Notes: generated by a model from the sequence alone, not told the origin. A stretch of 64,000 nucleotides of DNA from Cystobasidiomycetes sp. EMM_F5 (GCA_051047955.1 JBPGPT010000022.1:1-64000), one strand, 5' to 3'. Shown: positions 11,077 to 50,290, counted from the first letter of the stretch. Program-made: numbers and translations.

Positions 11077-13190
11077 CTACGTGTCAAGGACACACATCTC
11101 TTTGCCAATCTTGCGCGTTTGTAGTCCAAACGTTTTCGCCATATATTTTCGCGTCTTCTTGCAGAGTGGCAGCTCGGCCCATGCAGGTGACCTGCACGCT
11201 GTATGCTCAATGGCTTTCCAGATTGTAGGCTCCGGATCGATACCGTACAGCTGGACCATGTCGTCCTGCCACAAGACACGCTTGTTGCTACCAACAAGAG
11301 CTCGTGCTGTGCGGGTCGCTGCGCCGTATGATGCCCAGTGCCGGAGGTAGTACCACCAGCGATCGAGGAACCCATCGACGCCTGTGCGAAGTAGGTCATC
11401 TAGTGACCACTTTGCCATACAGGCGTGGAAGAACAACAGCGGGCGTGGCCGGGGCGGCGGGGTCACGAGTTGTGCAGAAGTTTCTGAATCGCTGCTGGAC
11501 GTCGAGCCATCTGCCTCTGCGCTGATGGGTCTCGCGGCTTGTTGAGGGTGAAGATGGGCAGACGGATCTGCTTGAAGTATACCCGCGATCCGTGTCGTAT
11601 TGGTAAAGAAGGCAGTATGCGCTCGAGAAGCAAAGTGATACGACTCCCCGAGGGCACGCAGAGCCAGCGGGAATGTATCCTGGCAATACAGTCAGTCTTC
11701 TGCGATTCGCTCAAAAGAGATTTAGCATACCTTGTCACCCCATCCTGGCGCCGATGTGCCAGTAATCAAGTCATAGTAGTACTCTGGCCCGAACGAATTG
11801 TAGTAGATGGCGAGCAGTAGCGACTTTATATATAGCAACGGTTAGCGGAGAGTATTATATTCATGTGGCAAAAATGTCAGGAATGGTTCTCTCGGTCACC
11901 AAACAAAGCGAATGCACACTGACCTTCCAATGTCGCTGCTTGTTCCACACAATCTGACCGGACTCGACAGTCTGCTCGTCGAAGAAGAGTGCAGACGGCG
12001 TGTCGCGGATGCCAGCTACAAACGGCAGCCAGTCTGATCCTGAATGCCTCCAGTAGTCTGGCCAGAGGATGGCACCGTGTTTGGCGTAGGCCTTGGAGTC
12101 GAAGAGAGCATCTGGATTTGAGATTGCAAAGTTGTCTGCGTCGAGAAAGAGTACTTCTTCGAATGACGAAAATAGCATAGCGAGAGGCTTGTACAGGTAG
12201 CCGTTGGGCGGTCGAGACCCAATGCTCCCGGGAGAGGGTGCTTCGAGATTGTAGTCTGACAGTCGTCGACACGCAATACCTTCTCGTGCTAGTTCGTCAC
12301 ACCAGCCTGGGGTTTCATCGTCTTGGTCCTTGAACCACAGCTCGACTGGCAGTTTTGATCCAGACTCGCGTAGCATGCCTAGAGCTGTCGCGGCGTAACC
12401 TGAATACCTCGCACCGGCAAACATGACTACGCCTCTACCGTTGAAGATGTTGTTGGCGGGATAATTTAACAATCTGTCAATGACGGCCTTGTGCGCATCC
12501 CGAGTCTGCTGCGCATTTTGAGCATCGATAGCACCTCTCCAGCCCGACACGGGCGCGTGCGCTTCAAACGAGTGTTGCAGCTCGCTCCACATTGTCGCCA
12601 GTGTCAGTTTGTGCTCGTCATCGAGATCTCGAGGGGGTTGGACATTGTTCGGATTTGTGCGGGCGATACTTATCGGGCAAGCGGTGAGGGATGCAGGATT
12701 GGAGGAGTCGTCTGTGTAAGCATAGTCGACTTGATGTGAAAGACTCGATGGCACTTGATCATCATCGTCTATCGGATGGATCGTCGAGCTGCTCCCGGCT
12801 GGATTCCACTTTACGACGGTTGGCGAGGACGAGGAGCTGGGAATGATGTCGGGCACAACCTGTGCAGTGTACGGTGTTGACGCTGACGCCGTGTGCCGTC
12901 GCAACACAACACACAACCCGAGAATGGTCACAAATGCACCGCCAAGGAGTACACGTTTTCTCGAGTACGGGCTTGGGAATGAAGCTGAGGACGGCGGGAG
13001 TCAGCGATGAGCACCTCGCACTCACACTCACACCCCACTCACACCGTCGCAGTCCAACGATAGGCATAGGCCCCCACTCTGCGGCCATGTTTGCACCGCT
13101 GCTGCTGGCGATGCTCGACCTGGTGCTGCTCCCAGACTCGCTCCCTCCCTTTTCGAGCAGCGAGGCCGACAGCATTGCCATTCCAGCCAT
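11077..13190 (-). CDS. GT71 alpha-1,2-mannosyltransferase (Mnn2/Mnn5-like), copy 1
   Basis: Type II anchor (RKRVLLGGAFVTILGLCVVL), GRGVVMFAG, LRESGSKLPVELW, SSFEEVLFLDADN, LWPDYW, ESGQIVWNKQRHWK, GWGDK/DTFPLAL; introns after HWK and GDK. Confidence 0.88.
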
Positions 13191-13485
13191 ATCGCTGCTG
13201 CTGCAGTCACAGCGTTGCCCAGCTGTTCGCTGTCCGGGCATCGTTTCAATAAAACCACAAAGTTGTAGACTCGCTGTTTTGCGACGCCGCAAATGGCCCT
13301 GTTGGTGCCTGAAAACCCCGATCAGGCGACCTTTATTATCGAGGGCAATATGTAAATATATGTGTGGTCGACGAGAATCGAACGCAGGGCTCCGCTGATT
13401 ACAATACTAATCTCGACAAACAGATACAATCCATTTCTAATCAAATATAGCAACCAGGATTTACTTGTTGCCAAGAGGGGTGGAC

Positions 13486-14722
13486 ACCCTTCTCCGCCTG
13501 ACGGGCACGCTCGTCAATCGTCTGCGTTAGCGGAGCCAGGGGTAGCTGCTGTGATTGAAGGTGGAGGTCCTACTAGGACGACTGCTGCTTTGGATCGTCG
13601 CCGGCGGATTGGAAAGACGACTTCGAGGGCTACTACTGCGGTCGCGGTGTCGTGCCCGGCTAGCTGGACTGTCACTGCGACCTGTCGAGACACGCACGTC
13701 AACAACCAGAGCCTGCTGCGCACCGTCGTCATCTTACCGCGCGCGAGATGATACTCGCAAAATCGAATCTGGACGGACTCGGGCTTGAAGCGCGTGCAGT
13801 ATTGACCATTCTCAAGGTACTGACAGTGTCGGCGACAGTCTTGTTCCCAGGGTACCTTGCGCTGGTGACATACGTGGCGATTTGCTAGTTGACGCAAGCA
13901 GTGCTCTCCGCAGTCGCATTGAAGGCCGTTCAACATTGTTCGAAGCCGGAGATTGGAGCATTGCTCATTCTGCTGCACCAAGCAACGTCGTGGACAGTAA
14001 CACTCTCGGCAACGACTGCTTCGGAACACCGGGTTGTTCGGGTGGATGTCGCATACGTGTCGAAGATGGCAGAAGAAGCTGTTGTTTATACTGGATTCTC
14101 CACAGCCAGGATACTCGCAGGTACCGCTGTTTCGTCTGATGGAGGTAGACGCGAGCGGTCAGGTATAGTCGCTCGCAAAAAACAAATTACTACGCACCGC
14201 CAAAGAAATGGCATGAGTGACGGTGAAATCTGAAGGGGCAGCTGTCAAGAACGCAGGTCAACGATGTGAATGAAAGAGCAGGATGCACTAGTGAGCTGGG
14301 ACGAGCCAAGACGCGTTCTGAATCAAGTGATTTGAAAGGTCTAATGATGAATGGCGATAACAATCGGTCTTGTTAGGCATCGCCACTTTTCGGGGACGAA
14401 CGCAAGCTTGAGAGTCATTGACATTGTCGTGTGAACCCTCGGCCGAGAGACATGTGCATCTCGGCAAAGATCTGTTCTGACGTCCTCTTTCTGAACAGAC
14501 CGAGCGCCGTCAGGACTCGCTGTCTTTAGCTATTCGGCGCAACAGCTTAGTAGGGGAGTTTGGCATTCTGGACATAGTCGGGACATTGCTGTAGATTTGC
14601 AACTCAATTCAGCTGTACTCTCTGGGTAAACGCTCGCGATTTGGCGACGCGGCTTTGCATACGTTGAGCAATGCGCCTGGTTCTCAAGAGAGGGCGTTGG
14701 ATACCCTTCTCCGCCTGACGGG
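13486..14722. repeat. Exact 20-bp direct repeat ACCCTTCTCCGCCTGACGGG at 13486-13505 and 14703-14722
   Basis: Read directly; both copies lie downstream (3') of zinc-finger paralogues A and B. Confidence 0.85.
13527..14214 (-). CDS. Cys/His zinc-finger-repeat protein, paralogue A (5 units); 3 exons
   Basis: MPFLWR|RNSGTCEYPGC...FCHLRH VCDIH...CREC ...DCGEH...DCRRH...FCEYH; phase-2 first intron, phase-1 last intron, Arg/Ser-rich tail. Confidence 0.75.
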
Positions 14723-14927
14723 TGTGAAGACAAGCGACATTACATTATTGCAGCCAGAGATCTGAGCAATCGGGTTTCGTGCCCTGCTTCCGCTGCTTCA
14801 GTCAATACAAGAGCATGAATGACGATGTGCAATGGGCCTGTGAATTATCTGACGTTTCTGCTTGTAGGGATCGACACTTTTCCCCAATCAATGGCAGAAC
14901 ATTGGACTGGAGACAGCTTGAACCTCG

Positions 14928-15583
14928 TCATCTTCGAGCCGGTACTCGGTATTCGATATTGAGGCTACCCTGTACTCTAGATGGCCCGGCGGCAGGACTC
15001 CCATTGCGGCTCCGGTCGGTAGAACGGCCGCTGCGCCCTCTGTTAGCTGCTTGCAGCAAGTTTGTCAACACGACAAGATATGCAGTCTTAACATACCGCA
15101 AACGACTCACGCGATGTAGGATTGCCATGTTGTCCACAATCGACTTGCATGTTAGATTTAGGCCGGCCACACCTTTGTCCGTTGGGTAGGCTTGCGAGGC
15201 AGTGTTTGCCACAATCCCTCGGAAATGGGTTCTTGGCGTTATTGCACTCGTCACCATTCACGAGCCATCGACAGTGCATGCCGCAATCATTCTCGAGATA
15301 GCAGCCGTTCCAAAAATTGAAACCTCCGCAAGCGCGATTGCCAGTCTCTTTCAGCGTCTTTGGGCACAGACATCGTCTACAGCGGTCTCCCCTGTATGCC
15401 AGAATCTCTGGGTGATGCTTGCACTTGTGCGGGAGGTGACAGACTCGACTTTCCTCCAAAGCGAATTCTGTGCAAGATGGGAATGTGCAGCGAATATTGC
15501 TGCCACTGTTTGCTACATTAGTCCGAAGGTTGATTTTATGTGGATGGCAGCAAGAGCGCGACATACCGAACTATATGAGGCAT
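14928..15583 (-). CDS. Cys/His zinc-finger-repeat protein, paralogue B (5 units); 3 exons
   Basis: MPHIVR|GSNIRCTFPSC...VCHLPH KCKHH...CRRC ...DCGMH...DCGKH...DCGQH; same intron phases; tail GRSGRSTDRSRNGSP. Confidence 0.75.
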
Positions 15584-16015
15584 TGGGACCAGAAAATAAG
15601 TGCAAAGTCGCCGGAGTTTGAGCCGAGTCTTGGTAACACGTTGAGAGCACTAGAGATGAAGGAAAGCAAAGAGCATTACAGCTCTCGTGCCATTTTATGG
15701 GTGCATTGGCGATGCCAACCTTGTCAGACAAAGACTCGCCGGTTCTCGGGGATGGACATATGCGTGGGACCGATTGATGTGGCCGAGGGAAAGCCGTGCA
15801 CTCACTTCGGCTGCTTATTGAAAGGTCACCCAACCTCGAACATGCCAGCCGGAACCGTACGTGCGGGCGCATGCGCGTGCGTAGAAGTCATGAAATCGCA
15901 GTCCCGACCACTGCAGCCAGACGGGCACATGGTTGTCATAATGTAGGCAGATTTGGCTTCAGAACCATGCTGGCCAGATGGGATGTTCTTGCAAAGCTCA
16001 CTGCACGAGGCAGAT

Positions 16016-16099
16016 CGCTCCGTCCTGCGCTCGGCGGAATCGAAGCCGAATGTGCGTTGCATTTGACCTCTGGTATGTTTGCAGTAAAAGTCTGATCCG
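16016..16099 (-). pseudogene. Truncated, frameshifted relic of the 3' end of GT71 copy 2
   Basis: GSDFYCKHTRGQMQRTFGF versus GSDFYCKRTRGQMQRTFGF at ~17680-17765; high nucleotide identity, with a 1-nt indel after FGF. Confidence 0.8.
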
Positions 16100-16517
16100 T
16101 AAGCGTTGCTCAACCAAGGTCTCAAAGGTGATTAACCGTGTCCAGCTCTGCCACAGTGCTGGATCGAATTTGGGCAGGATCCTGCATCAGAATCGATTCA
16201 CCGGCTTGAAAGGCAATGAAGTAAATTAGGTGGCTTCAGCAGAATATGTCATAGGTATGTCTCAAGACACCGGAAAGCTATCTCACATATGAGCGAGCAG
16301 ACCTGTCAGCATTGTTCTGCGCGTCAATCTACCATTTGCCTCAATGGAGCGTTTCGATGTCGCACAAGAAGGCCAGGTAGCAGAGACTGCTCAATACCGA
16401 GGACAAGGAGTACATAGCGGTTGCCCTCGCCTAAATGTAGTGACACAGCGAGCAGGATAAGAAGACAGAGTATACAATGTCGAGGCAGTGATACACGTTG
16501 ACAGGCTTAGTTCACGT

Positions 16518-17159
16518 TCAACCCCATGGATCTTGATTGGTCCAGACGCGGTTAGCTGGATCATTAGCAAAGCTAACACGCCGCCCGTTAAGGGGAGCTC
16601 TTTGAGCTGTGCCGGATCCATTGCGGCTGCGGCTGCGGCTACCTTGACCGGGACTTCGGCTGCGATTGCGATCTGTCGTATTATCGCGACCTGACCCAGT
16701 CGAAGACTGATTGTCAGAGATGAACGACGGTCAGAGCAGATCATAAACACCTACCCCGCACACTTCCATGCCTTTGGCAGTCGACCTGAGCCAGTGTCTT
16801 TATTAGATTACATTGTACTACACCGATGACAACTCGACAGTGTCGGCCGCAATCCTCTTGCCCTGTCTCGGTATTGCATGCGAGAAGGCAAGGCCGTCCC
16901 GTCTCTCGGACATACTTTGGGCATGTGCAGAGATCACAGCGGTTGACAGAAACGACCGGTCTCGATGCGTGTATAGAACACATGTGTCGCACCCAACAGA
17001 ATGGGGATCCGCTGATGCATGAATTGCTGCAGCTGGGATACTCGCAAGTGCGCGCAGTATCGAACCTAAATCGTGTCATCGGAATAGTAACAATGATATC
17101 AGTCGGGATTATCCATAAGCGCACCGCGTCCGAGCAACGCACGACATAAAACCAGGCAT
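16518..17159 (-). CDS. Cys/His zinc-finger-repeat protein, paralogue C (4 units); 3 exons
   Basis: MPGFMS|FDTARTCEYPSC...FCWVRH MCSIH...CDLC ...DCGRH...DCQRH; tail RNRSRSPGQGSRSRSRNG...GRRVSFAND. Confidence 0.75.
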
Positions 17160-17661
17160 ATTTTGGAGGGCGCGAAGGATCTTGCGTCACAATGTATGAA
17201 AGCGAGCGATGAAAGACTTCCTAATCAGAAGCCGGAACGCAGATTGGAAAGCCAAGACCGATATCGAATTTGAGTGAATTTGAGTTTCCGCGGCTGCAAA
17301 GGCGATGATGGTCCGTGGTCTGACACCATCGCCCGATCCGGTCCCATTGCGAGCCAGTCTGCAGCGCCATCACAGTGATACGCAGCTGACGAGGACTTCG
17401 CAACGCGGAACGTCGATCGGCCAGAACGCGCTCTCCGGGACAAGCCAGACTGTCGGCCTTTATCTGTGTGCAGAGCTGCAGTGTATGCCAAAGTACGTCC
17501 CCGTACGAGCATGCAACGGGCGGCGACTGTTCATTAGGGCTTTAGACACCGACAGAGAACAAGTCTGTGGGTCTTTGATGGCCAAAAAGCAGTCGACGAT
17601 AGTATGCCAGTGTTCGTATCCGTTTACGTGAGCCATGTCCGGCTGCTGTCCTGTACTGGTC

Positions 17662-19331
17662 CTAATCGATGATACACACCGCTCCATCTTGCGCTTTGCG
17701 GAATCGAAAGCCAAATGTGCGTTGCATTTGACCTCGAGTGCGTTTGCAGTAAAAGTCCGATCCGAGAGCAACACTTCGACAAGCAGTATGTTCGAGTGCT
17801 CTCCAGATATTGCGCTCTGGATCCATGTCGATCCCATAGACACGATCAAACTCCTTCTGCCATATCAGTGGCTGGTGCTGACGTAGTAGCTTCCGCATTG
17901 CGTGATACTGTCCAAGCCGCCATTGGTACCAGAAGCGAGCATACGGCTGTATCCACCATGGATCAAACAAGCTGGCGAGTGACCACTTGATGCTGTTTGA
18001 GTGCAGGAACAGAGCCCTGAACGACTTGTCTGGATGTGCAGGATCGGCTTGGACCATCGACGCCAGGGTTGTGGAATTCGTCAGGAAGGCAGATCGGGTG
18101 GGATGCGGTACAAAATGATACGGCTCATCGAGAACCTTCAGCGCCAGGGGGAAAGTGTCTTTGTCGCCGTAGCCAGCCATATCAAGAGCCAGAACAGTGT
18201 CATACCAGAATGTCACGCCGTAGAAATTATAGTAGGCCACCAGCAAAAGGGACTGCAATGCATGTCAGCATTAAGCGAGACTTCCTCCAAAATTCCTTGG
18301 TCAACCCACCTTCCAGTGACGCTTCTTGTCCCACAGTATCTGACCAGACTCTGCTGTCTGGTCGTCGAAGTAAAGAGTCGATTGCTCGTCTGTGACTCCG
18401 ACAATGTAGGGGAGCCAGACAGATCCGCCGTGCCTCCAGTAATCCTGCCAAATGACAGCACCGGTCAATTTGTAGGGCGTAGCGTCAAAGATGGTGTCTG
18501 GGTTGCTGAGGACAAAGTTGTCGGCATCGAGATAGAGAACCTCCTGAAAAGCGGAGAACAGTATGGCGAAGACCTTAAGCTGATAACCGCTAGTAAGGAG
18601 GGCCATGTGCCCTGCTGAGATGTAATCTCCTATCCGCCTGCACGTCATTCCTTCTGTCTCCAACTCTGCGCACCACCCTGGCGTTTCGTCTTTCGTGTCT
18701 TTGAACCAGACTTCGACAGGCAGACGAGAGCCAGATTCGCGTAGGATTCCCAGCGCCGTTGCTGCATACCCAGAGTACCTCGAACCAGCCATCATGACGA
18801 TGCCTTTGGCGCTAAAGAAACCGAGGGGCTGCGTGGTGTATGCTGGCAATGCTGCAACGACATTCGCATGAGCGACGCGGGCATCTAGAGCCGTTTCAGG
18901 CGTGAAATGGTTCCACTTGTCTCGGTGGGGTTCGTTGTTTACGAAGAGAGCATGCAGCCCATTCCACAGCGCTGTCAGCTGGTCGACCTCTGTATCAGTC
19001 CGGTCCAAGGGTCTCTTGATATTGTTCGGGTTTGAGCGCGACACGCTGGGACCGCAAGGAGCAACCTGAGACTGGGACTGAGGGAGCTCCACGAGATAGT
19101 CTGTACGGCCAGCGCTGAAGATGGTCAGTCGAGCCAGGGTGCTCAGCGCGACGATGACAGCGATGAAGCCATAAAGTGCCCGACGGCGGCTGGTGGAAGT
19201 CGACGAGGCTGACGAGAGCAGAGTATGTATCGTCAGTCGAGCTGGATTTCAATTCATTATATCGCACCTCCAGCAGTCCCCAGAGCAGCATAGCCAGTCT
19301 TGTCTTTGCGACGACGACTCCAAGTGACCAT
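17662..19331 (-). CDS. GT71 mannosyltransferase, copy 2
   Basis: MVTWSRRRK..| TM RRRALYGFIAVIVALSTL, KGIVMMAG, LPVEVW, VLYLDADN, WQDYW, ESGQILWDKKRHWK, GYGDKDTFPLAL (no intron at GDK). Confidence 0.88.
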
Positions 19332-19480
19332 ATCGTCTCGACAGCTAATCCCTACGCGCAGTCAGGGCTGGAGACTGCTGACGTTTACTGATGAGGACTG
19401 CAGAGTCAAGGCTGATTCCGATTTAAACATGCGTTGTGCTGACATCTAAAGCTATGAAAATGATCCTAATGATACGTAAA

Positions 19481-21460
19481 CTATCTTGTAAGGTCGCCAG
19501 ATACACACGCTCCGTCAGCAGCGCGTATTCCAAAGACCGTACGCAACCTTTCTCGCGCCTTCACGCAAGATCTATCGTTTCCGAATGAAGAGCTTTTGCA
19601 GGCCGTATACTCCAACGCCCTCCAAATCCTGGCTTCTAGGTCCATTCCCATTCTCTGCTCTAGTGCCGGCTTGACACTCAAGAGGCGCTGGCTCATTGAC
19701 AATCGAGATCGGACCGTAGACCACTTCCGCTTGAAAGCTGCAAAGAACAATTGTCGTAGCTCATCGACCCACCGCGAAGGGATAAGAGCGCGCACCGACC
19801 ATTTGATGGCATGGGCGTGCACAAACATGGGCGGGCCGGTAGGATTCGTCGGATCAGCTTGCAGCATCACGGCGCTTATGTCTGTCCCGTCGAGGTGAGC
19901 GATTTCCAAGGGTGTAGGAACGATATGGAAAGACTCGTTGAGTGCTCGCAAGGCTAGCGGAAACGTATCCTTGTCGCCCCAGCCAAAACCTTCGCCTACG
20001 GTTGCAGTCCACCAGAAATTTGGTCCGTACATATTGTAGAAGACCGTTAAGAGAAGGCTCTATACAAATGGACGTCAATATCATGCTATTACTGGTAATT
20101 GACTGCCTACCTTCCAATGTTTACGCCTGTTCCAGACAAGTTGTCCTGATTCTACGGTTTGCAGGTCAAAAAGCATGTCTGATTTCGAGTCCGACAGGCC
20201 AACCAAGTATGGCAGCCATGGCGAATTCACCGACTTCCATTTGTCCGGCCATAGTACCGCCCCGGTCTCTCTGTACACTTGCCAATCAAAGAGTTTATCT
20301 GGGTTAACGAAAGGCATACTGTCGGCATCCAACAAGAGGAATTCGTCAAACGTCGAAAAGATGGTGATCAGGGCTTTCCACTGATACGCTGACCAAAGCT
20401 GCGCCCTCTTTCTTGAGTAAGTTTGCTCAAGCCACGACATCGGATTCAGCCAATCCCACTTCGAGCCGACCTCAAGGTAGTCTGAGAGCCTGCGACACGA
20501 TGCTCCTAGTGTCTGCTCTATCTCTGCACACCATTCCGAATTCTCTTCGGCTTCGTCCTTCGTCCATATCTCTACTGGAAGTGTAGATCCAGTCGAGCGC
20601 AACACACTCAGAGTGGTTGCAGCGTATCCAGTAAACTTGGACCCTGCCAAGATGATAATTCCTCTTCGATTCGGGTACATCGGATCCGCCGAGTTTGCCG
20701 TCTCATTTGCTGTCGTTCGATCAGGATACTCAGGCAGAGCATCCACGATCCGCTGGTGAGCAAGACGTGTTTGTGAAGCGTCTTCCGAAGACATGAGATT
20801 CCGCCTGTCCGCCATCTCTGCCGTGTATGAAAGCAGACGTGGCTTGTTGGGTTTCCGCCAGCCCATCGGTCTCCACAATCGACGTGGCTGAGGGGCATTC
20901 GACGCGAACAAGCTTTCCATTTCATCCCAGAGTCGTACCAGCCTCTCCTTAGACTGCTGACTACGTTTCTGTGGTGGACAGACATAATGCTCAAATATAT
21001 TGCATTGTTCGACATCCTGCTCGTTCGCGGGTGGTGCTGCTATCGGCTCAGATGCAGGATACTGACCATTGGCAATTGGGAGAGCGCTTTCGTCGGAATG
21101 CCCTGCCAGCCGGGCAGGGGCTGCAATTGGCACGGCCTGTGGATAGACATGATACATTGCGGAAGACGATGACGACGCCGACATCGCATCTGGCGCTGTG
21201 ATTGACTGCGGAGACGGTACCGCGTTCATCGTACTGATCTCTAGATCAGCCGAAGGCGCCCAGCTTGCCGGCGCGTGCAAGTGGTACCAAAGTCCGTATG
21301 TCACGACGACCGAAATGCATATCTGGGTGATGCCGAATCTCAACGAGCCTAACGCTGCAGTCACACAGTATTCAGGCACCGTTTACTGATGAAGTCGTGC
21401 GTTTGCACTATAGCAGTACTCACCTCTTGCACGCGCCATCGCGCTCAATCGACTCGACAT
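19481..21460 (-). CDS. GT71 mannosyltransferase, copy 3 (start codon uncertain, 21439-21475)
   Basis: TM GITQICISVVVTYGLWY, RGIIILAG, LPVEIW, LLLDADS, WPDKW, ESGQLVWNRRKHWK, GWGDKDTFPLAL. Confidence 0.88.
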
Positions 21461-21692
21461 ACAGACATCATGCATGTCTGCTAAGCTCCTACTCTGCGCG
21501 CAGTCGGACACCGAAACGCTCAGGATTACCGAACCGTTTAAATGTGGTGCACAAAGGGTTGCTAATGATGCTACAGTCGGCAGTCAGCCGCACGTGTTCA
21601 CATGGGCTTCTGGGTCCTTGTGCTGTATGACTATCACTTAATGCCTTCGAATCTGACAACATCATCGCTCATACGACTGTCTACTACCAATC

Positions 21693-22671
21693 CTACAAGA
21701 ACTTCTTAGCGCTCGAGATGCCTAACCGAGAAATGCTACTAAGTCCTTGCGTTCGAGACTGCCAGAATTGCGTTGCAACTGTTACAGGACGCACCAAGTG
21801 GCCGTTCCCAGCGCGGCCAGCACCATTTGGGGTCTGTTGCCGAAGATTTGAGCCTGTTTCAAGTGGATCGCGTAAGGCCGATGATGTCAAACAACGGCAT
21901 CGTACTATGTATCTGTCGCTACTCACTTGGCTGTCCGCCATGCCGTCCGCAATCCTTCTGCGCCGGCGTCTTCGCTTCATTGCATATGCGACCAAGTATC
22001 TCGTATGTGCATTTGTGTCGACCGCAGCTCTTCCAGCTCGGCAATTTTGACTGACCGCATTTGACGCCATCCGTAAGTAAATGGCACACATGCTCTCCGC
22101 AGTGGTGCATCGGTGGCTTTTTGAGCCGGCCGCAACTGCGCCCACCGACTGGGGTTGTGCAATTGTGTCGTCCGCAAGTCTCGACGTCTCTTCCTTTTCT
22201 TCGAGTACACATCAGCTCTTTGGTGACCTGAAAACGGCAGTGTGTCCCGCAATCGATCTCGCTCAATTCCTTCATGAAGGTGCAAGAACCCAATCGACCC
22301 ATGAATTGACAGTGTCGCCCGCAGTCCTCTCCGCCTTTAATCTTGGGGCGGACACATTTACGGGAGACGCCCGTTCGAGGGTGCGTCTTGTGATGATCTG
22401 GCTTCATGCATTGACACTCATGACACGCGTCAGACACGCCGCTCGTTCTCTTCGGATGATTGATGCATGCGTGTACGTTCTCGCAGTAGTCGCTGTCAAG
22501 CAGAGCTTGCTTTGTGCAATCGGTAGCAATGCAAATTCTGGAAGCATGGAACTCCGACCTGACAGAACTTGCATCAGCTACCAACTGTAGGACGGTAAGA
22601 GCCTTCCCCGCTTACGGATGGAGTGGCGGAGGTGCGGGACGATCTTTCGTGAAATTCGTTACAGTGGACAT
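21693..22671 (-). CDS. Cys/His zinc-finger-repeat protein, paralogue D (8 units); 3 exons
   Basis: CIATDC...YCENVH ACINH...CHEC, then six C-x(8-17)-C-x10-C-G-x-H units; phase-2 first and phase-1 last introns, as in A-C. Confidence 0.8.
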
Positions 22672-23021
22672 GGTGGTGACCAGGACTGTACCCACCGGAT
22701 ACAAGGAATCGCCAGACTTGTAAGGCGGCTTTTGAAGGCTGGGCGGCAGTGCTCGATGTCAGCGTAGCAAACCGGACTCTGTTCAGCAAAATGCATCGCC
22801 TTCCGGGTCCGCGCAGTCAGCTGCGATGGTCAGGACTCCGAGGGCCAACGGGTTGGGCAGTCATTCGCGAGCGAGCAGCGAGGGGAAAAGTCAAGGTTGC
22901 TCGCTTGTTGGTATTAATTTGCGTTATCAAGGGCTGCGAGCTGACGAGTACATATCAGCAAATGATCTAATACTGATCTATGTTGCCTTCAAAAGGAGTT
23001 CGGCTGTAAAGCTCTGTTATC

Positions 23022-24837
23022 CTACATCAGCTTGTGCCCGCAAGACCGTTCATCTATTCCTCTACTGAATTGAGTTCCTAATGCCTTCTGCATGTAAGAA
23101 CGTAACGCATCGCACAACTGCTGATTGCCGAATGCCTCGCTGTAACAAGCGGTATCTTGCAGCGCATTCCAGATTAGGGACTCATTATCCATCATGGGGC
23201 TTCCGGGGTGCAATTGTGATGCTGCTTGTTGTGGCATCTCGTACAATCGCTGGTGGGAAAAGATGCGCTCCCGGAAGATCCTAAATTTGCGCTCGTGCAG
23301 GCCTCGAAACCAACCTCCGAAGGCTTTGGACCAATCTAGCAAGCCAAATACATGACCGTCTGCATGACTTTCCAGAAGTGTGGACGCGATTACGCCTTGA
23401 AGAGCCATCTTGATGGCGTTACAATGGAAGAATAGAGGCGGTCCATTGACGTCCGATGGATGCGACTGAACCATTGCAACAAGCGTACGTTTTCCTGAGG
23501 TCCGGGTTGCGAGGAAAGCGGATCGTGGAGGTCCCGGTATGAGATGAAACGGCTGCCGTAACGCCCGAAGAGCGATAGGGAACGTATCCTACAGACAATA
23601 GAAGCATTAGTCAGACCCCTTGCTGCGACATTGGCGCAGTTGTCGGACTTACTTTATCGCCCCAACCATTTCCAAGGTCTACCGTGAGCGTGTACCAGAA
23701 ATTCGGGCCTGCATAGGCATAGTAGGCTGCTAGGAGTAGAGGCTGCGATGTGTGCATTTTGTAAGCTTGCTGCTCTAGACAAATATCATTGGAGTGGCTT
23801 AGACGTACCTTCCAGTGCGTGCGCTTGTTCCACAACATCTGCCCAGACTCTACGGTTTGTTCTCCGTAGAGCATATCGGATTTATCTGCTGTCATGCCTA
23901 CGATATACGGCAGCCAGGGCGAGGTGACGTATCGCCAGTAATCCGGCCACAATACTACTCCATTGTTGCGATAATGATGATCTTCGAACAGACTGTCCGG
24001 ATTGAGGAGTGGCATGCTATCAGCGTCTAGAAAAAGCACTTCTTCAAATGTCGAAAAGAGAATTGCGAAAGTCTTCCACTGATAGGCAGACCATGGTACG
24101 TATTCCGCTGACTTTAGCCACGAGAAAGGATTGAACCAGTCGGAAGGACTACCGAGGCGAATGTATTCTGCCAGCATCCTGCATACAGCACCCTGCTCTG
24201 CAAGTTCGCTGCACCACCTTTTCCGATCTTCACTTCCATTCTTCATCCATACTTCCACTGGCAACTTTGATCCGCTCTGTCTGAGCATGCCTAGCGTTGT
24301 GGCAGCATATCCCGAGTATTTCCCTCCTGCAAGGATGACTATTCCGCGTCCGCCTCTATAAAGCGAATTTGCATTCACCAGATCCCACTCCGGTAGTCCA
24401 GATACGACATTTGCATGCGCTGAGCGCGTCTTTGCAGCATTATCTGCACCTGGAAACCCTCGTTCTGCCGCTTTCTTGGAAGTATACTCGCTGAGAGCTT
24501 TCTTGCCTAGGCGATTGAAGTACGGTCGCATCACTCTGTTTGGATGTGGAGGATTGTCTGCAAACAGTGTCTGCAGGTCTTGCCATACGCGTGCTAGACC
24601 ATCCTTTTCGTTTTGCATCCTGTCGGGCGGTACCCACTTTTGCATTTCGACAGAGCGGAGAATAGTACCGTTACATGATGACGGAGAAAGTGGTGAGATG
24701 GACGAGGGATCTGTGTATGTTGGCGCGGGAGTATAACGGCGTTGCGACCAGTATGACAGGGTCAATGCGGTCGCGACTGCAACACAGCCATACAACAAGT
24801 TTGACCACCTCCTAGACGAGCCTGCAATGAACATCAT
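23022..24837 (-). CDS. GT71 mannosyltransferase, copy 4
   Basis: TM LLYGCVAVATALTLSYW, GRGIVILAGG, LPVEVW, VLFLDADS, WPDYW, HWK intron, GWGDK intron 23589-23652. Confidence 0.88.
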
Positions 24838-25590
24838 TCGTCAGAGTATCAAATCAATATGTCTAGACGTCTCCCCACCTCTGGGAACCATCCATCTCGG
24901 CCGGACTTGGGGAGCCAAGGGTTTGGTAATGACGAGCATCATTATACGAGCGAGTCAAGTCGGGCTCCAGAGAGGCAGATTGTCAGCTCGATATCATTAC
25001 TTATTCAATCAGTCTCCATCGTCAGCACCACATTCACATCAGTTCTTTGTTCTTTCGCGGTCTGTGCCCGCAAGCCGCAAATTGTGCACGGTCGCATGCC
25101 GTAATGCCAGTGCATAGTTACTTGAGTACGCTGTAATCTCGACATGTCGATGTCATCTCCTCTCCAGGTGCTGTGAGTTGTTTTCAGGTCGGCTGCGAAG
25201 AGGAAACCCATACACTCAAATGATCTTTCAAAAGCCCTTCGCGACATAATCGACGAGGTGCTCCCCATGCGTTCATGGACTGCTTCGACTTGTTGGAGAA
25301 GGAGCCTTCATACTGAATTGCGCGTTCAGACAACTACTTGGTAACAGAGCAGCAAAATATAAAGACAACGACAAACTGTTTCTACTTCTACTGCTGCAAA
25401 GTGATTCTTGTATGATGAGCTCTATGGAACGACTTACTTATGCGTGACTGAAGTTCGAAGTGTACGCATTGCCCTGCAATGCATGTGCATGTGCGTTGCG
25501 AAATGTCTCTCTCGATATATACGATGTTTGTGGGCGGATTAAGAATACGGAGATGTGAACCCAAGCCTATTGACGTTGTCGAGCTCAATA

Positions 25591-27667
25591 TTACGACCAT
25601 GCAGGACCAGCCGCGATTCCAGGTATTCCCAATTTGCACAACCATTTCGGTGCTGACGGCGTCGGCGTGTAGCCATACGCTTTTTCACGGTATCGTCTGA
25701 CAGTCTCGCACTTGGTCGCTGATCCCATCGCGGAAGACCAGCATGCGATGTTTTGTACGACTCTCCAAATGTCCGGTTCTGGGTCGAGATTAAAGTCGTC
25801 TACTAGTTCTTTGGGTCGCAAGACTCGCCGCCCTTCCTCGAGCGCAGGACGGGCTTGAGTATTCCACGATAGCAGATCGGTGATGCCCCACTTGATGATG
25901 TTGGCGTGCAAAAACATTGGAGGACCGAATGGATCCGTGGCAGATGATTGAAGCATTCCTGTCCCTCCTCCAGTGTCGTCAATGAAGACTGTCCGGACTC
26001 CCTGCGGAATGAAGTGGAAGGATTCGCCGAGTGCGCGTAGGGCAGTTCCGAACGTGTCCTTCAGATACAATGCTCTTCAGGACCTGCGGCAGGCGGTTGG
26101 TGTATAATATCGAGCCACTCACCTTGTCTCCCCATCCAGCGTAGCCATTGGTAATGGCCATGTACCAGAACGTGGGCCCAAAGTAATTGTAGTACATGGC
26201 GAGAACGAGGGACTGTATGTCCGTAACAAGGCAAATCAGCATTGCTCACGTCCAGCACGCGTCGTAGAAATCAAAATTGCCCACCTTCCAATGCCTCCTC
26301 TTATCCCACAAGAGCTGCCCCGACTCTGCCGTTTGTGTGTCCTTGAGCATCCACGACCTTTCTCCAGTCAGGCCAATCAGGTACGGCAGCCACGGTGTTC
26401 CAGAATGACCCCAGTAATCTGGCCATACGACCGCTCCATGCTGCATGTACCCGTCCGAATCAAACACGGAATCAGGATTCATCATTACCAAATTGTCTGC
26501 GTCTAGGAGTAGAATCTCTTCAAAGCCCGAGAGGAGCATTGCGAGTGCTTTATACTGGTATCCCGACGAAAAGGGAGTCGATTTACTCGGCCCAGCCAGC
26601 CCAAAGTATCTCGATTCTTGACCAAACAAGTGTGATGGGACGTAGTCTGTCAATCTACGGCATACGGCACCTTCTGAAGGGAGTTCGTCGCACCATCCGG
26701 CAAAATGCTCTTCGGAAGCGTCACGTAGCCAGACTTCTACTGGCAGACGGGACCCAGCTGTACGGAGCATACCGAGTGCAGTCGCTGCGTACTGAGCATA
26801 GTTGCCTCCACCGAGAATGACAATTCCTCGTCCCTGAAAGAGGGTCGTGGTATTGTCATTATCGTCCTGTGGCCAGCTGGGTATCTTGTCTACGAGATCT
26901 CTGTGCGTGTCGCGCGTACGGGTTGCATCGTCTTGGGAGAGGTGGACATAGTCGTCGAGTTGAGCGTCGGTGTACTCTCTGAATGCCTGTGGTTGTTTTA
27001 CGCGTGGTATACTCACTGGCTGGGGAGGGTGCGAGTCGTAGAGTGCTTGAAGGGATTGCCAGAGCTGGGCTCGTCTGTTAGATAGATCGAGCGGAGGGGG
27101 AGAGACGGACCCCGGTGCTCCCGTCCCCGGGAGTATCTCGCTAGCCGGGATCGAGTACGCGCACTCCCCTGCAACGACGCTCGATATCGCCGACAGTCGC
27201 ATCGACACCTGCCCAATCCTCTCTGTCCCGTATATAAATAGTCCGGTGAGGATGATTGCAGTCGAGTAGACGATGATTCGGCGTGTTGTTGGACTCGTGG
27301 AAGGAGAGCGTGAGTGTGGTAGGTGTGCATGCTCCAGCTCGTCCTTGGCAGAGTACTGGCTCGTCGGAGAGCGTGTCCCATCGAGGGATGCCTGTCGGAT
27401 GGACGACGAGAGGGGGAGGAGGGCGTCTGAGGTATACGACGGTGTCAGTGCCATCAATACATTCAAAAAGTCAGCCCACCCACACTTTGCATCGCTGCTG
27501 GCAGTCCTCGAATGAGTCTTGCTCCTCCAACCGGGCACCCATCCTCTGACGGCGTTGAGTGAGCGTGCAATCATGGCTGCTGGTGATCTGCTCTCGTTAC
27601 TACCATCACCCTCCGACACCCCATCGATGTCGATGTCGTCCAGAAGAGTGCTCGTGCTGCTGTCCAT
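25591..27667 (-). CDS. GT71 mannosyltransferase, copy 5 (long cytosolic N-terminus)
   Basis: TM RRIIVYSTAIILTGLFIY, GRGIVILGGG, LPVEVW, ILLLDADN, WPDYW, HWK intron, GWGDK intron, PMFLHANIIKW. Confidence 0.88.
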
Positions 27668-27971
27668 GTCGGCTCCTACAGTACACCGCCCTTTGATGCT
27701 GTCGGATATACAGACCCTCGGTCCGCAGTCAACGTGGGCGGGATGTGATTATGGAGACGGTGTCGGGATATTATCCATGTTCATATTGGTCGGTGTCGAT
27801 ATAAGCTGTCAATGCAGTCAATGCAATCTCTCACTCCCTCTCACCCCTGTCCTCCCCCTCTACGCGCTCATCCGTTCCCAAACACGCAAACTCTGCACGC
27901 GTCAAGACTGACTAAGCATCGGAGGGATATTGTCGTCGGTTCAATCCACGTTGCCGTCGATGAATTATAGT

Positions 27972-36064: not shown

Positions 36065-39000
36065 CTACAGTTCGATGGAGTACGTTCGTTGGATTGGAGC
36101 GGCTGTCTTGATCCTGAGTGGAAGTGAAGGCGCTTGAAATACAGTCTGCGAGCCGTGCTCATTTCGTCCGGTCACTGCAGGCCCCGCCTCTGCCATACTT
36201 CTGACTCCTCTTGCCTCTTGTTGGGCGATGTACACTGATCGAGTCATTCGCTGTGGTTGCCTAAACTCGTTGCCTAGTTCGGCTGGAGACTGCTGACCTC
36301 GCTTCCGGGCAGATCTTCGATACTGCCATCCGCCGCTATAGTCAGCAAACTCGGAAGACGCCGTAGATACAGAGCTAGCTCGAACGGAATGGATCGACTG
36401 TTCTTCAATGGCATCGTATTCGCCGAGACTCTGCGCCCACTGCATCGTCCTCGCCAGGGCAGGCATTTCTTGAGCTGATAGGCTATTGTCTCTAGCCATG
36501 GGAATGCTTGATGATTCCTACCCAAAATTTCACCTTAGCCATCTTTCCGAGCTTACGTGCCGCTCACTGGTTGACTCACTCGGACGACAATAACCTCAGC
36601 ATTAGTAGCCGATGCCTTTGTGGAGCTTGACACTACCGCAGTACTTTCCGTCTCGTCTGTTACTTCAAAGACAGCATCATCGCCACCGCCGTCGACATTT
36701 TCTGTAATGTTGGCTGTCTGCAGTCCGCCTTTCCGTGAAGTGCCTTTGGATTTGGTCGATAATGCACGTGCAGCCGCCTGCAGGTGCATGCGACATCAGA
36801 ACTTGTCATTCACCTGCCACGGCGTTCCTTACTATGGCTGTTCTCGGCGTTGTGGGTCGAGTTGGTCGACACTTAACGAGTATGCGCTCGACTTCCTCTT
36901 GCTCTTCCTGACTGTTTCCTTTATCCACTTCCACATCATCATCTTCCTCTCCATCTGAATCTGAATCTGAAGCTGAAGAATCGCTATCGGCTGATTCGGA
37001 TTCTACGCTGGGTGCGTCGTACGAACGCATAGCCTTCCCTTTTGGAACGATGAGGCCCGACTGCCTCCAGCTTGGCTCGATAGGGCATCCGGATGAAGCT
37101 GTGCGTTGCCTTTTTCTACTGTGGCTGATGACTGGCTGCCGACTGCGCGTAGCATCGATGCCTACAAGCTTCTTCTCGCCTGCCAGCTTGCGGCGCCGAC
37201 ATGCTCTTGGGGCTATCTTCATTACGTCGGTCATGTTTAGAGCGCAGCCGGAGTCTGCGTGGTCTTCGCTTGCAGTCACTATCGATGAATCGGTCACGAT
37301 GTCTGCCGACAATTCCTGAAAGGAGACATATGCACGTATCGTCAAGTCCACGTCTCGACAAGTAAACACAGCCACTCACAGAGATGCTGTCGTTCGCTGC
37401 AAACGCATGACAGATCTTGCAGAACCAGTTTCGATCTTCACTGAGGTCGTCACTGTCGCGACCGACACAGCTCGCGTGATACGTTCGGATGGGGCATTCC
37501 TCACTGGCGCATTGTACCATTGGACGACCAAGTTCCGGCTGCCGACAGATACAGTATATTTGACCTGTATCGCCGTCGTCTTCAAGCATGAAACCGGCAT
37601 TGTCGCCATCTTGCCATTCAATGTTCATAGTTACTGGTGCTGGGGACTTGCCCATCTCAGGCACACCCGGCCCAGGGTGAAGAATCCCCGCAGTTGCTGG
37701 AGATGCGGCATTGTGACAGTCCTGAATCTTCTGCAATAACGACGATGTGTTTGTTCCATCCGGTGCAGATGGTTTGGGAGTCGTGGAAATTTCAGCAGAT
37801 TCGCTGACTTGAACAGCAGAGGCACTGCTCGCAGTTTGCGCAAAAGCAGTTTCCGGAGCATCGCTTGGGCGTGAAGATGCACTTGCCATCGGTGAAGCAA
37901 AATGAAGAGACGCAGACGCGGTCAAAGTGTCTCCATGACCCGCTGCATCTCGGGCAGGAACAAAGTCGTTCGTTTCCTCATCGCTACTCTCATCGAGGTT
38001 GAAAATTGCAGACTTGTTTGCCTGCAGCTTCTTCGAGCGCGACTTGAACGGTGACGGCAGCTTACTATTTAGATCGACCTCTAGGAACGCCAAATTGAAT
38101 GATGTCGTAGATTCATGGGCTTCATGAAGCATTTCTTCGAAGTTCGAAGTCGGACTAGATTGCCTGACACGACAAGACGCGGCATGAGTGTTTTATGCCC
38201 TTCATAGAATGACAATGCAGTCACCTGTGGCTGCGCTCCCCTCCATTTGTGGTATGGATGAGAGCAGCGTGCGAAACGCTTGCTGAGATCGTTACTAGCT
38301 CGTCGCTGATGGGCGGAACGGCCTCTGGATGACTGCTAGGTACCGGTGACGCGTCAAGCATTGATGGTATGATCTGTTGGTTATCACCATCGGCTTTGGT
38401 CACGGTTACGGTTCCGTCGGGCGACTTCCTATACTCAGATGTCAGTCTATGAGATCGACAATAGCAGAGTATTATACTCACTTGGCTGAGGCTGCCACCT
38501 CATCATTCTCGAAGTCCACTTGCATGGATTCCATGTCCATAGGCGTACCTTCTCGAGTTGAAGGACAAGGCGGGTACTGCATACAGAAGCTGAAGACCAG
38601 GAGTCTGTTTTAGCCGATCGATGAGAGTGGGGCGTATGTTTGCCGTAGCTTACGCAATGTCGTCCTCATCGCTGTCGTCGACCATTTGTGTATCAATCGC
38701 AATCACTGGTGTGCTACAGGGTCGCGTTGAGCAGATCGAAGCATCATGCGACGATGGGCGTCAACACTCACTGCGGCTCAGCATCCAATGCAGAGGTGTC
38801 GCTATCTAGCGGCATTTCGGATGAGGCTGCGAGCGATTCATGCTCTGCAAATGAAGGTGGAGCTGACAATGCTCTACTTGTCCTGGTAAGGCTGAATACA
38901 TCAGGCTGAGAATATCCAAAACTGACCGATATGTGCTCACAGGGATTCACAGTCAGCCGGTGTGATTTCCAAAGCCTCCGAGAGTGTTCTTTGAACGTAT

Positions 39001-48110: not shown

Positions 48111-50290
48111 TCAGCCAAACAGACGCTTCTCGTGACTAACGAGCCCATGGACATTGCCTTCCATCTAGAAGACACAACACCGAGTCAGCATGCCAAGTAG
48201 TGCTGCATTTATGCAGCCAAACCTGCCTGAGCACTCGCACTGCGCAGCTCGAATCGAAGTTTGCCAGAATCGGCACACTCGCGCAGCTCGCCAAGGTTTC
48301 GCATGCCCATGTCCTGTAGCAAACTTGTCAGCTGTTATTAGACGTTATAACAGTAGCACAACCTACCTGTAGGGAGTGTTGAAGACCGGCAATTAGATAA
48401 GGGATGTAGCCGTGAAGCGATCTGTAGTAAAAGTCAGTATGTCTGAAGCGCAAACATACGCTAGAGTGTTCACCCCTTGTCTTGCACGCTGCCAGTGACA
48501 CCTTGTGCTACACGCACGACAGAATCTTCTGCGAAATATCTCGAAGTGGCCGCGTTATCCGAGCTCGAATCCTTTGTGACCTTCTTCCCTCCTGCAGTCG
48601 TCTTCTGGACCTTCTGATGTTCCATAGCATCGATGGAGCCCATGCCGCGATATCGCTTGAGCCGCTTGCCTTCGTGGTAAAAGACTTCGCCGGGCGCTTC
48701 TGTCGTTCCAGCGATGAGGGAACCCATCATGACTGCCGAGGCGCCCAACACGAGCGCTTTGGCGATATGTCCAACGTTACCTATACCGCCGTCCGCAATG
48801 ACGGGTACGCCGAATCTATTCGCGAATTGAGATACCGAGTAGACGGCTGTGCCTTGTGGCCGACCGCACGCAGTGACTTCTTGCGTAATGCAGATGGATC
48901 CACTGCCCATTCCGACGCGAAGTCCATCGGCTCCCGCTACAATAAGCTCAGCAGCCTGTTCCCGAGTGACGACATTGCCAGCAATGACATCTATCCCTGG
49001 ATACGTCGCCTTGATCCACTGAATCATCTCGACCTGGAACGTAGAGTTGCCTTGAGAAGAGTCGAGGACGACGATATCGAGACCCGCTTCGACTAGGAGA
49101 GCCAGTCTCTCTCTGTCGGCAGGGCGAGTGCCAATAGCAGCGGCGCAAAGCAGCTGCTTGCTGTCCGGCTTCTTGGACGCTAACGGATATTCCTTGTTTT
49201 TGAGCAAATCTGAACGAGCCAACAATGAGACCAAGCGGCCTTCGCTGTCTACCAAGGGCAATTTGCCCTTCTTCGAGTCGCGCAGAACCGCATTCGCTTC
49301 TTCGAGGGTGATGCCTTGTTGCGCGACAACGAGATCGGGTGGCTGAGTCATGACGGAGGAGAGGAGAGTATCTGAGGCGCGGAACTGGACATCTCGAGCA
49401 GTGACGATGCCTAGCAGCTTGCCATACAGCTTGCCAGTATCTAACGGAACAATCAAGTTGCATTAGCGGGCGCTCTGTGCAGGCATTCGGAGAGACACGG
49501 GGGAAGAGTAGAGGAAATCAGAGGACATAGGTTGATCAAGGTTTCCACATCGGGTTATCCGTATACGGTAGAACGAAGGTTAACAGCATGATTGAGTTTT
49601 CATCGCGTATATCGGGAAAGGAATCGAGAGGCCAGGCTGGACTTTCGCGAGAGAGCTTACCAGTAACAGGGATACCAGAGTATCCAAACTGCTCCTTGAT
49701 GTCCAGGACATCCGCAACGGTATTGTCGGGCTTCAGGCACGCAGGGTCGGTGATGAAGCCGTTTTCAAACTTCTTGACCTTTCTGACCATCTCTGCTTGC
49801 AACTGCGCTGGCATGTTGTGGTGGATGACTCCGATGCCTCCAAGGAGCTGTGCGCATCAACGATACGGTTCATCGTAGCTTCTTGATTCAGCGAAAGCCA
49901 TGCAGACTTTTCGGACGGATGAAACATACAGCCATTGCGATAGCAGCAGCGTGTTCGGTGACGCTGTCCATGGGCGACGACACGAAAGGCGCTTTGATAG
50001 TGTGGTTCTGTGTATGATGTGCTCAGCCAAATCACTCCAGACCAATGCCGCGATAACAGGCTCACCTTGGTCAAGCGAGTGCTGAGCTCGACGGCCGACA
50101 CGGGAAAGGATATGCGACCAGGGAGCACGAGGATATCATTGTAGGTGAGTCCGCCGTGCTTTGTGTCGTCCATGAGCTCGTCTATGCTCAGCCCATCGCG
50201 GCGGTCGTAGCTGCTCAGCACCTCGCGCGCCGTCTTTGGGTCGAGGTACTGCTGGCTGGTCGAGCCATTGGTGTGCTGTGTGCTGACCAT
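48111..50290 (-). CDS. IMD: Inosine-5'-monophosphate dehydrogenase with CBS domains; spliced
   Basis: [67 protein letters not shown]-terminal [16 protein letters not shown]. Confidence 0.97.
49514..49610 (-). ncRNA. snR54: Intronic box C/D snoRNA, snR54-like (guide for 18S Am974 equivalent)
   Basis: Inside a ~200-nt IMPDH intron: C-like box GCGATGA (49606-49600), guide TAACCTTCGTTCT (49582-49570) complementary to 18S AGAACGAAGGTTA, degenerate D', D box CTGA (49521-49518). Yeast snR54 lies in the IMD4 intron. Confidence 0.8.

Follow-up and report, generated by a model that had tools for sequence, protein, structure and literature searches.

Several described finger classes bear comparison with the genes reported here. 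CxC6 (PF18721), a "cysteine cluster associated with KDZ transposases", is a fungal module that occurs in tandem, and together with WRC (PF08879), Zf_WRKY19 (PF24906) and zf-C3Hc3H (PF13891) it falls into a wider C-x(2-4)-C-x(~10)-C-x(2-3)-H class. Tandem CCCH RNA-binding fingers have the spacing C-x7/8-C-x4/5-C-x3-H, with linkers joining their units, while NF-X1 fingers (PF01422) start C-G-x-H-x-C and follow a denser, two-zinc ligand pattern. SRSF7 and ZRANB2 are zinc-knuckle/zinc-finger proteins with RS domains.

We analyzed a 64-kb stretch of DNA (hereafter the window) from a Pucciniomycotina-like basidiomycete yeast, in which four minus-strand genes, A to D, encode paralogous Cys/His-rich products. 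The window's IMPDH gene has its best named match in Cystobasidium minutum (83%), after which come other Pucciniomycotina and basidiomycetes. As the best explanation, we take the A–D proteins to be soluble, basic and intracellular, and to consist, for nearly their whole length, of Cys3His-type metal sites in series, numbering 5, 5, 4 and 8, respectively. That they form a zinc-finger family confined to one lineage and reading nucleic acids, possibly RNA, is a view to which we give roughly even chances.

Results

Four genes with a shared architecture

In our coordinate-based models, each of the four genes has three exons:

13527..14214, minus strand: gene A, 189 aa; exons 14198-14214, 13738-14135 and 13527-13681, with GT..AG introns of 62 and 56 nt; N-terminal module, 3 knuckle units and an Arg/Ser-rich tail
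14928..15583, minus strand: gene B, 176 aa (preferred model); exons 15567-15583, 15111-15505 and 14928-15046; N-terminal module, 3 units and an Arg/Ser-rich tail; the alternative acceptor 15039 gives 187 aa with a non-RS tail ending at 14888
16518..17159, minus strand: gene C, 166 aa (preferred model); exons 17143-17159, 16755-17065 and 16518-16690; N-terminal module, 2 units and an RS-repeat tail; the alternative acceptor 16706 gives 117 aa
21693..22671, minus strand: gene D, 282 aa; exons 22616-22671, 21927-22558 and 21693-21853; N-terminal module and 6 units, with a tail that is not RS-rich

All eight introns are GT..AG and 56–77 nt long, comparable in size to the ~50–80 nt that separate tblastn blocks in the IMPDH gene. 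As the original prediction had it, intron phases are common to the four genes (phase 2 for intron 1, phase 1 for intron 2), and exon 1 comprises exactly 17 coding nt in A–C (MPFLW-R, MPHIV-R and MPGFM-S). In D we find an exon 1 of 56 nt. Alternative 3' exons are possible in B and C, as are alternatives to the first acceptor in D, and we chose among them by sequence logic alone.

The products open with a common N-terminal module, C-x4-C-x10-C-x3-H-x-C-x2-H-x10-C-x2-C-x-C, whose two constituent patterns, C-x4-C-x10-C-x3-H followed by C-x2-H-x10-C-x2-C, keep invariant spacing in 4/4 genes, again as predicted. Behind it stand knuckle units of mostly 24–26 aa with the form C-x8/9-C-x10-C-x2-H, of which A and B have 3 each, C has 2 and D has 6, and adding these to the two N-terminal units reproduces the variable totals of modular units first counted. 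The most regular series lies in D:

21940..22311, minus strand: unbroken run of five regular repeats in D, each of 24-25 aa and of the form C-x8/9-C-x10-C-x2-H, Lys occupying C2+4

This Lys, four residues past the second Cys, is present in all ten regular repeat units, and the closing His of one site adjoins, or stands one residue from, the opening Cys of the next. A four-way alignment has 20 invariant columns, 15 of them Cys or His.

Compositionally, the proteins are basic (pI 9.3–9.5) and rich in Cys (8.4–9.1%) and His (2.4–6.4%). Such contents could be read as those of metallothionein-like proteins for metal buffering or storage, which we hold to be very improbable: the Cys fraction is far under the ~30% of metallothioneins, the Pfam search found no metallothionein family, and the fixed long spacings, the conserved Lys, Gly and Asp of each unit and the many basic and aromatic side chains suggest folded fingers. 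Consistent with the earlier claim that signal peptides are lacking, no 9-residue Kyte-Doolittle mean within the N-terminal 30 residues exceeds 1.04, and we found no membrane segment in A–D, the maximal 15-residue mean anywhere being at most 1.71.

The tails of A, B and C contain 32–49% Arg plus Ser (49% in A), with RS/SR dipeptides numbering 7 in 51 residues for A, 5 in 39 for B, 8 in 57 for C and 2 in 53 for D, the figures for B and C resting on the exon models preferred above. An RS-like tail suggests nuclear localization and an RNA target, as in the RS-domain zinc-knuckle and zinc-finger proteins. Counter to an RNA reading, D has no RS-rich tail, and in B and C the presence of such a tail hinges on the acceptor chosen. 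Disordered tails unrelated to RNA can be RS-like in composition too.

Ancient paralogs with apparently old differences in unit number

By blastp (composition correction, dbsize 1e8), A, B and C are readily recognized as paralogs (A-B 7.5e-16, A-C 2e-11, B-C 2.5e-10), and D joins them at longer distance (B-D 1e-6, C-D 1e-5, A-D 0.04). When set against the window's 1405 six-frame ORFs of ≥30 aa, a four-protein profile matched only A–D, with the next best at E 0.08. Blastn detected no nucleotide similarity among the four genes at E < 1e-3, and synonymous differences between paralogs are large (pS 0.66–0.99), so that dN/dS on the ungapped 42-codon module, with dS saturated or >1.5, is uninformative.

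The original prediction had the family evolving fast by unit gain and loss, which our comparison does not show, synonymous differences being saturated. Units within D resemble one another no more than units taken from different genes do (36% in both cases), and the last units correspond across genes (A5-B5 52%, C4-D8 52%), from which the variation in unit number seems to be of long standing, not a recent development.

Two of the genes reside in public protein collections, as mis-started, prokaryote-style ORF calls from a single assembly, and no orthologs of A–D turned up in any collection searched; both observations would fit chance ORFs or pseudogenes without function. We regard that as highly unlikely, given that each of the four copies has preserved its open frame, its full set of ligand positions and the shared intron phases despite saturated divergence, with pairwise E-values reaching down to that of A and B. 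Instead, the open frames, shared intron positions and phases, splice signals and, in A–C, 17-nt first exons indicate that A–D are real, anciently duplicated genes.

No characterized relatives, and a short likeness to CxC6

The family was originally described as unassigned, and it stayed so after comparison with Pfam, PDB sequences and 1.84 billion representative proteins, none of which yielded a characterized relative. In Pfam, whole exon-2 products and their sub-parts returned nothing relevant at E up to 10, only chance rows at E of at least 0.096, and zinc-finger models including zf-CCCH, NF-X1, zf-C3Hc3H, Zf_WRKY19 and WRC gave no match to A–D up to the same limit, where it should be borne in mind that HMMER filters discard most matches above E ~0.1. 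Pfam showed no RRM in A–D, and no RanBP2-type finger was detected either. Searching PDB sequences with the A1 profile (E up to 10) and proteins with D by word-indexed search (near and longer lengths) each gave 0 matches, and of 58 and 64 pattern matches from metagenome scans with A and D, respectively, tblastn confirmed none. Alignment A1 itself lacks any conserved stretch of 7–10 columns. As for the literature, the ligand-spacing strings were not found there, the nearest Pfam models are named in four papers, of which the three listed held nothing apparently relevant in their titles and abstract openings, and the terms "CxC", "cysteine cluster" and "zinc" are absent from PMC12730594.

Exhaustive profile search of the 1.84 billion proteins returned four matches, which by cluster look-up are all singletons of one source and without names. 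Two are the window's own ORFs, P0001 being exon 2 of B and P0002 exon 2 of C. The other two, P0003 and P0004, match positions 5–29 of the A1 profile only (E 5.0e-4 and 6.2e-4) and are repeat proteins that pass the Pfam CxC6 cut-off and match WRC and Zf_WRKY19 below threshold; hhalign of unit 1 with P0004 aligned 24 residues at 42% identity (E 1.9e-4, probability 48%). The resemblance to zf-C3Hc3H or WRKY19-like repeats that had been suggested for the family is borne out in part, for unit 1 only and through these two proteins, and is not supported for the repeated units, in which we detected no likeness to unit 1 or to the CxC6 repeats of P0003 and P0004.

Compared with CxC6 itself, unit 1 follows the C-x-[YF]-P-x-C-x10-C-x3-H form of the P0003 and P0004 repeats, and both families are fungal and tandemly arranged. 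However, no A–D row appeared against the CxC6 model (gathering score 27.5 bits) when exon-2 products and their 50 N-terminal residues were scanned at E up to 10, and beyond unit 1 the likeness ends, as the rest of the N-terminal module and the 24–26-aa repeats are undetectably related. WRC, Zf_WRKY19 and zf-C3Hc3H, of the same wider class, likewise gave no Pfam row for A–D at E up to 10.

With their only remote matches carrying CxC6, and with a basidiomycete as host, A–D might alternatively be domesticated or decaying transposon-derived cysteine-cluster proteins (from the DNA-binding CxC clusters of KDZ-type or other fungal mobile elements), acting on mobile DNA or chromatin or persisting as functionless remnants. 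A study of another basidiomycete describes CxC5/CxC6 regions there as multicopy and near retrotransposons (PMC7641404), which would favor such an origin. We consider it improbable, as the CxC6 likeness spans just the 24 residues above and none of the four reaches the model, and the surroundings of the genes speak against it as well.

Genomic surroundings

Interspersed with A–D are five GT71 mannosyltransferase genes and a relic, and the spaces between and beside A–D include the following:

17662..21382, minus strand: two intact GT71 (Pfam Mannosyl_trans3) genes between C and D, E 1.6e-30 and 1.8e-32; context rather than family members
16016..16099, minus strand: relic of a GT71 gene 3' end between C and B; it shares 87% identity with 17680-17764, where the intact GT71 gene lying upstream of C has its 3' end
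13474..13505, strand not given: 32-nt element just downstream of the A stop codon

A second copy of the 32-nt element, 88% identical, lies downstream of B at 14691-14722, and the window holds these two copies only, allowing up to 7 mismatches. A transposon origin would sit poorly with this neighborhood: across the 64-kb window, 43 ORFs of at least 160 aa outside the array core contain no transposase, integrase or reverse-transcriptase domain, a repeat search over 12500-23500 revealed neither terminal nor long repeats near A–D, and genes that are old, interleaved with host GT71 genes and conserved in their introns are unlike recent mobile copies.

For three of the four genes (A, C and D), the immediate downstream neighbor is a GT71 gene or relic that is oriented alike. 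Since zinc modules commonly mediate protein contacts, this arrangement might argue that A–D are protein-protein scaffolds or adaptors rather than nucleic-acid readers, perhaps tied to the neighboring GT71 genes, for instance as regulators. We think this as improbable as a transposon origin. GT71 catalytic domains (Mnn2/Mnn5/Mnn1 family) act in the Golgi lumen, whereas A–D have neither signal peptide nor membrane segment; moreover, high pI and RS-like tails better suit nucleic-acid binding, and adjacency to GT71 genes may reflect mere co-duplication.

Discussion

Returning to nucleic-acid readers, the A–D proteins are likely to coordinate zinc and to interact with RNA or DNA. Functional analogs may be the tandem CCCH fingers, with which they share ligand order (Cys, Cys, Cys, His), a first spacing of ~8, serial units and basic character. 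The second and third spacings differ (10 and 2 versus 4–5 and 3), as does the joining of units, which in A–D abut, His beside the following Cys, where CCCH units are connected by linkers. By this analogy we propose that A–D may work like tandem CCCH RNA-binding proteins. The repeat core C-G-x-H-(x)-C resembles the start of NF-X1 fingers, but with 4 ligands per ~25 residues A–D fall short of that denser pattern and have no Pfam row to it. In overall layout A, B and C recall SRSF7 and ZRANB2, in that an Arg/Ser-rich tail lies C-terminal to small zinc modules; these tails, however, are short (39–57 aa) and only in part made of RS dipeptides, and D is without one.

Language-model search placed an unnamed 547-aa cluster (65 members, mostly Ascomycota) at the top for both D (0.89) and A (0.84), which we treat as a lead only, nothing similar to this cluster having been recovered by any sequence search. 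An "NFX1-type zinc finger-containing protein" cluster came second for D at 0.78, a range that shuffled proteins also reach. Structure prediction with AF2, whose models contain no metal, gave a mean pLDDT of 38.3 for A from the four-sequence alignment and 58.8 for a two-unit piece of D aligned with seven one- or two-unit pieces (eight rows). The two-unit model, too low in confidence to inform on fold, had 0 Foldseek matches in the PDB at E up to 10 and, with VIA-align against 48,161 chains, 0 at Z of at least 2.

Mechanistically, one zinc ion would fold each unit, and the array of units would run along a nucleic acid such that the conserved Lys and the overall positive charge touch the backbone, with unit number fixing the length of the site read. 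In A, B and C a disordered Arg/Ser-rich tail would end the chain. We infer a nuclear location from these features, and RNA over DNA as target.

A bolder version, which we offer as a long shot, has the 24–26-residue unit with its invariant Lys as a new zinc-finger fold, whose abutting units would form a continuous, rigid multi-zinc rod. This rod would read RNA or DNA in modular fashion, each unit covering one short step, and proteins with 2–6 units would accordingly differ in target length. The family would then have arisen and diversified with the GT71 array, and it may control those cell-wall genes post-transcriptionally.

For the biology of these poorly sampled basidiomycete yeasts, the locus illustrates that their small, intron-bearing Cys/His genes are absent from protein databases, or, as for two of the four here, present with the wrong start. 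Orphan families of tandem Cys/His units are, at the same time, a recurrent find in fungal genomes. If A–D are expressed and bind zinc, they represent an undescribed zinc-finger repeat type, with a unit that is simple, countable, marked by a conserved basic residue and found in a natural range of 2–6. If this is true, A–D would offer a compact system for how serial small fingers read nucleic acids.

Gene models and divergence of the finger genes

Reading the minus strand in three frames across 13480-22720 and building exons by coordinate, we predicted four neighbouring genes (A-D), each with three exons, that encode Cys/His multi-finger proteins.

Predicted finger genes
13527-14214, minus strand, gene A: 189 aa, exon 1 of 17 nt, introns of 62 and 56 nt
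14928-15583, minus strand, gene B: 176 aa, exon 1 of 17 nt, introns of 61 and 64 nt
16518-17159, minus strand, gene C: 166 aa, exon 1 of 17 nt, introns of 77 and 64 nt
21693-22671, minus strand, gene D: 282 aa, exon 1 of 56 nt, introns of 57 and 73 nt

The predicted junctions share their phases in all four genes (intron 1 phase 2, intron 2 phase 1), and all eight introns have GT..AG ends, CTRAY-like branch sites and sizes comparable to the gaps (~50-80 nt) that separate the tblastn blocks of the window's IMPDH gene. Alternatives exist for the first acceptor of D and for the last exons of B (where two of three candidate acceptors give an Arg/Ser frame) and C (where acceptor 16706 would give a 117-aa protein). 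Together with the Cys/His spacing strings, these rebuilt models confirm the original prediction in its description of four genes with shared finger units and intron phases and, in A-C, 17-nt first exons.

Pairwise blastp E-values between the paralogues run from 7.5e-16 for A-B (best) through 1e-6 (B-D) and 1e-5 (C-D) to 0.04 for A-D (weakest). At the nucleotide level blastn detected no similarity between them, and the ungapped 42-codon module shows saturation at synonymous sites (pS 0.66-0.99), so that dN/dS is uninformative. Since the four copies retain their ligands, their intron phases and open frames despite this saturating divergence, we are confident that A-D are real genes, and consider it very improbable that they are non-genes. 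A profile of the four proteins found no fifth copy among the 1405 six-frame ORFs of the window.

A fixed N-terminal module followed by a variable number of knuckles

The N-terminal module (C-x4-C-x10-C-x3-H-x-C-x2-H-x10-C-x2-C-x-C) has invariant spacing in all four genes and is followed by 3 (A), 3 (B), 2 (C) or 6 (D) C-x2-H knuckle units, making the earlier unit totals of 5, 5, 4 and 8 correct. In each gene the first knuckle past the module departs from the regular form; the regular ones (10 of the 14 knuckles) are 24-26 aa long with the pattern C-x8/9-C-x10-C-x2-H, and in a regular array the opening Cys of the next unit adjoins the closing His or is separated from it by one residue. A Lys four positions past the second Cys is present in 10/10 regular units, most of which also carry D-C-G-x-H at the knuckle, and 15 of the 20 invariant columns of the four-way alignment are Cys or His. 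The proteins are basic (pI 9.3-9.5), a search for a hydrophobic N-terminus or membrane segment in A-D found none, and the tails encoded by the predicted last exons are Arg/Ser-rich in A, B and C (7, 5 and 8 RS/SR dipeptides), with 2 such dipeptides in the tail of D.

Fast evolution by unit gain and loss had been proposed for these repeats and finds no support here. Units within D are 36% identical, the same as units from different genes (36%), and terminal units correspond across genes (A5-B5 and C4-D8, both 52%), so the differences in unit number look old.

The mechanism we favour, at roughly even confidence, is that single-zinc Cys3His knuckles form a chain that would lie along nucleic acid. 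The protein's net positive charge, together with the Lys kept in each unit, would contact the backbone, and footprint size would follow from unit number. Because A, B and C carry RS-like tails, we lean towards nuclear RNA as the target. Metal buffering by these Cys/His-rich proteins seems to us highly unlikely.

Finger genes interleaved with a mannosyltransferase array

Genes A-D lie within a same-strand (minus) array of five GT71 genes (Pfam Mannosyl_trans3) spanning 11861-27748.

GT71 features
11861-13000, minus strand, GT71 gene (Mannosyl_trans3)
16016-16099 (ORF 15826-16131), minus strand, relic (84 nt) of the 3' end of a GT71 gene, located between C and B and sharing 87% identity with 17680-17764
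17662-19248, minus strand, GT71 gene (Mannosyl_trans3)
19481-21382, minus strand, GT71 gene (Mannosyl_trans3)
23611-24840, minus strand, GT71 gene (Mannosyl_trans3)
26246-27748, minus strand, GT71 gene (Mannosyl_trans3)

The conserved GT71 cores are ~65-70% identical to one another at the nucleotide level. The relic is far closer to its match, the 3' end of an intact GT71 gene, than the intact paralogues are among themselves, so a later partial duplication and a subsequent deletion may have produced it. Immediately downstream of A, of C and of D lies a GT71 gene or the relic, an arrangement suggesting that a finger-plus-GT71 unit was co-duplicated. A protein-interaction scaffold, perhaps linked to this array, is an alternative to nucleic-acid binding that we regard as unlikely.

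Further sequence features were observed here. Judged from the sequence, the GT71 gene downstream of D has an apparent 16-nt first exon (MARAR) that ends in phase 1, as does exon 2 of D, so a read-through splice from finger exon to GT71 body would be in frame (21382-21440 and 21927; also 13088 and 13738). A 32-nt element containing a short GGGTG..CACCC inverted repeat occurs twice in the window (13474-13505 and 14691-14722, 88% identical), 22 nt past the stop codon of A and about 200 nt past that of B, and may be a 3'-UTR or termination signal common to both. An ORF unrelated to the finger family (37116-38192, minus strand) gave a weak PHD-finger match (E 9.4e-5) under the Pfam cut-off.

Remote similarity is confined to the first finger unit

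Whole A-D products and their sub-parts had no relevant Pfam match at E up to 10, nor did PDB sequences match the A-D profile at that limit; a word-indexed protein search with D at near and longer lengths returned nothing, and metagenome scans with A and D gave no confirmed relatives. An exhaustive profile search of 1.84 billion representative proteins yielded four matches, two being the window's own B and C as prokaryote-style ORF calls starting inside intron 1, public singletons that both come from one assembly. The remaining pair, at E 5.0e-4 and 6.2e-4, cover only profile positions 5-29, that is, unit 1, and are built of tandem C-x-YPGC-x10-YCS-x2-HR units; they score above the Pfam CxC6 cut-off and show sub-threshold WRC and Zf_WRKY19 matches. 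Aligning the family profile to one of them with hhalign gave 24 residues at 42% identity (probability 48%, E 1.9e-4), and a repeat-unit profile matched neither of the two nor unit 1.

Unit 1 is thus a probable member of the broad C-x(2-4)-C-x(~10)-C-x(2-3)-H class. The zf-C3Hc3H or WRKY19-like resemblance noted earlier probably holds for unit 1 and fails for the rest of the protein, which has no detectable relative. The original interpretation as a whole is partly supported. PMC7641404 describes multicopy Pleurotus CxC5/CxC6 regions near retrotransposons and remarks that specific DNA can be bound by cysteine clusters. Descent of A-D from a transposon's CxC-type DNA binder is an explanation we regard as unlikely, and 43 other large ORFs scanned in the window contained no transposase, integrase or reverse-transcriptase domain. 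The family's spacing strings were absent from the literature searched.

AlphaFold2 reached pLDDT 38.3 for A (four sequences); a D fragment of two units, with seven further unit pieces in its alignment, reached 58.8. Neither Foldseek nor VIA-align matched the D model, a blank that is uninformative at this pLDDT. As leads only, a language-model atlas ranked one unnamed, mostly Ascomycota 547-aa cluster top for D (0.89) and A (0.84), and an NFX1-type cluster second for D (0.78), neither confirmed by any sequence search.

A finger family in a sparsely sampled lineage

Proteins of the window appear in the public collection solely as prokaryote-style ORF calls from one contig. No public protein exceeds 83-85% identity to the IMPDH ORF (48470-49462). 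Its best named match is Cystobasidium minutum (83%), with further Pucciniomycotina and basidiomycetes next in rank, which points to a sparsely sampled Pucciniomycotina-like basidiomycete yeast lineage rather than an ascomycete. Tandem Cys/His families of orphan type are frequent among fungi. The repeat architecture is unusual and matches no assigned family, and we interpret these genes as a putative variant of tandem zinc fingers, so far restricted to one poorly sampled yeast genome.
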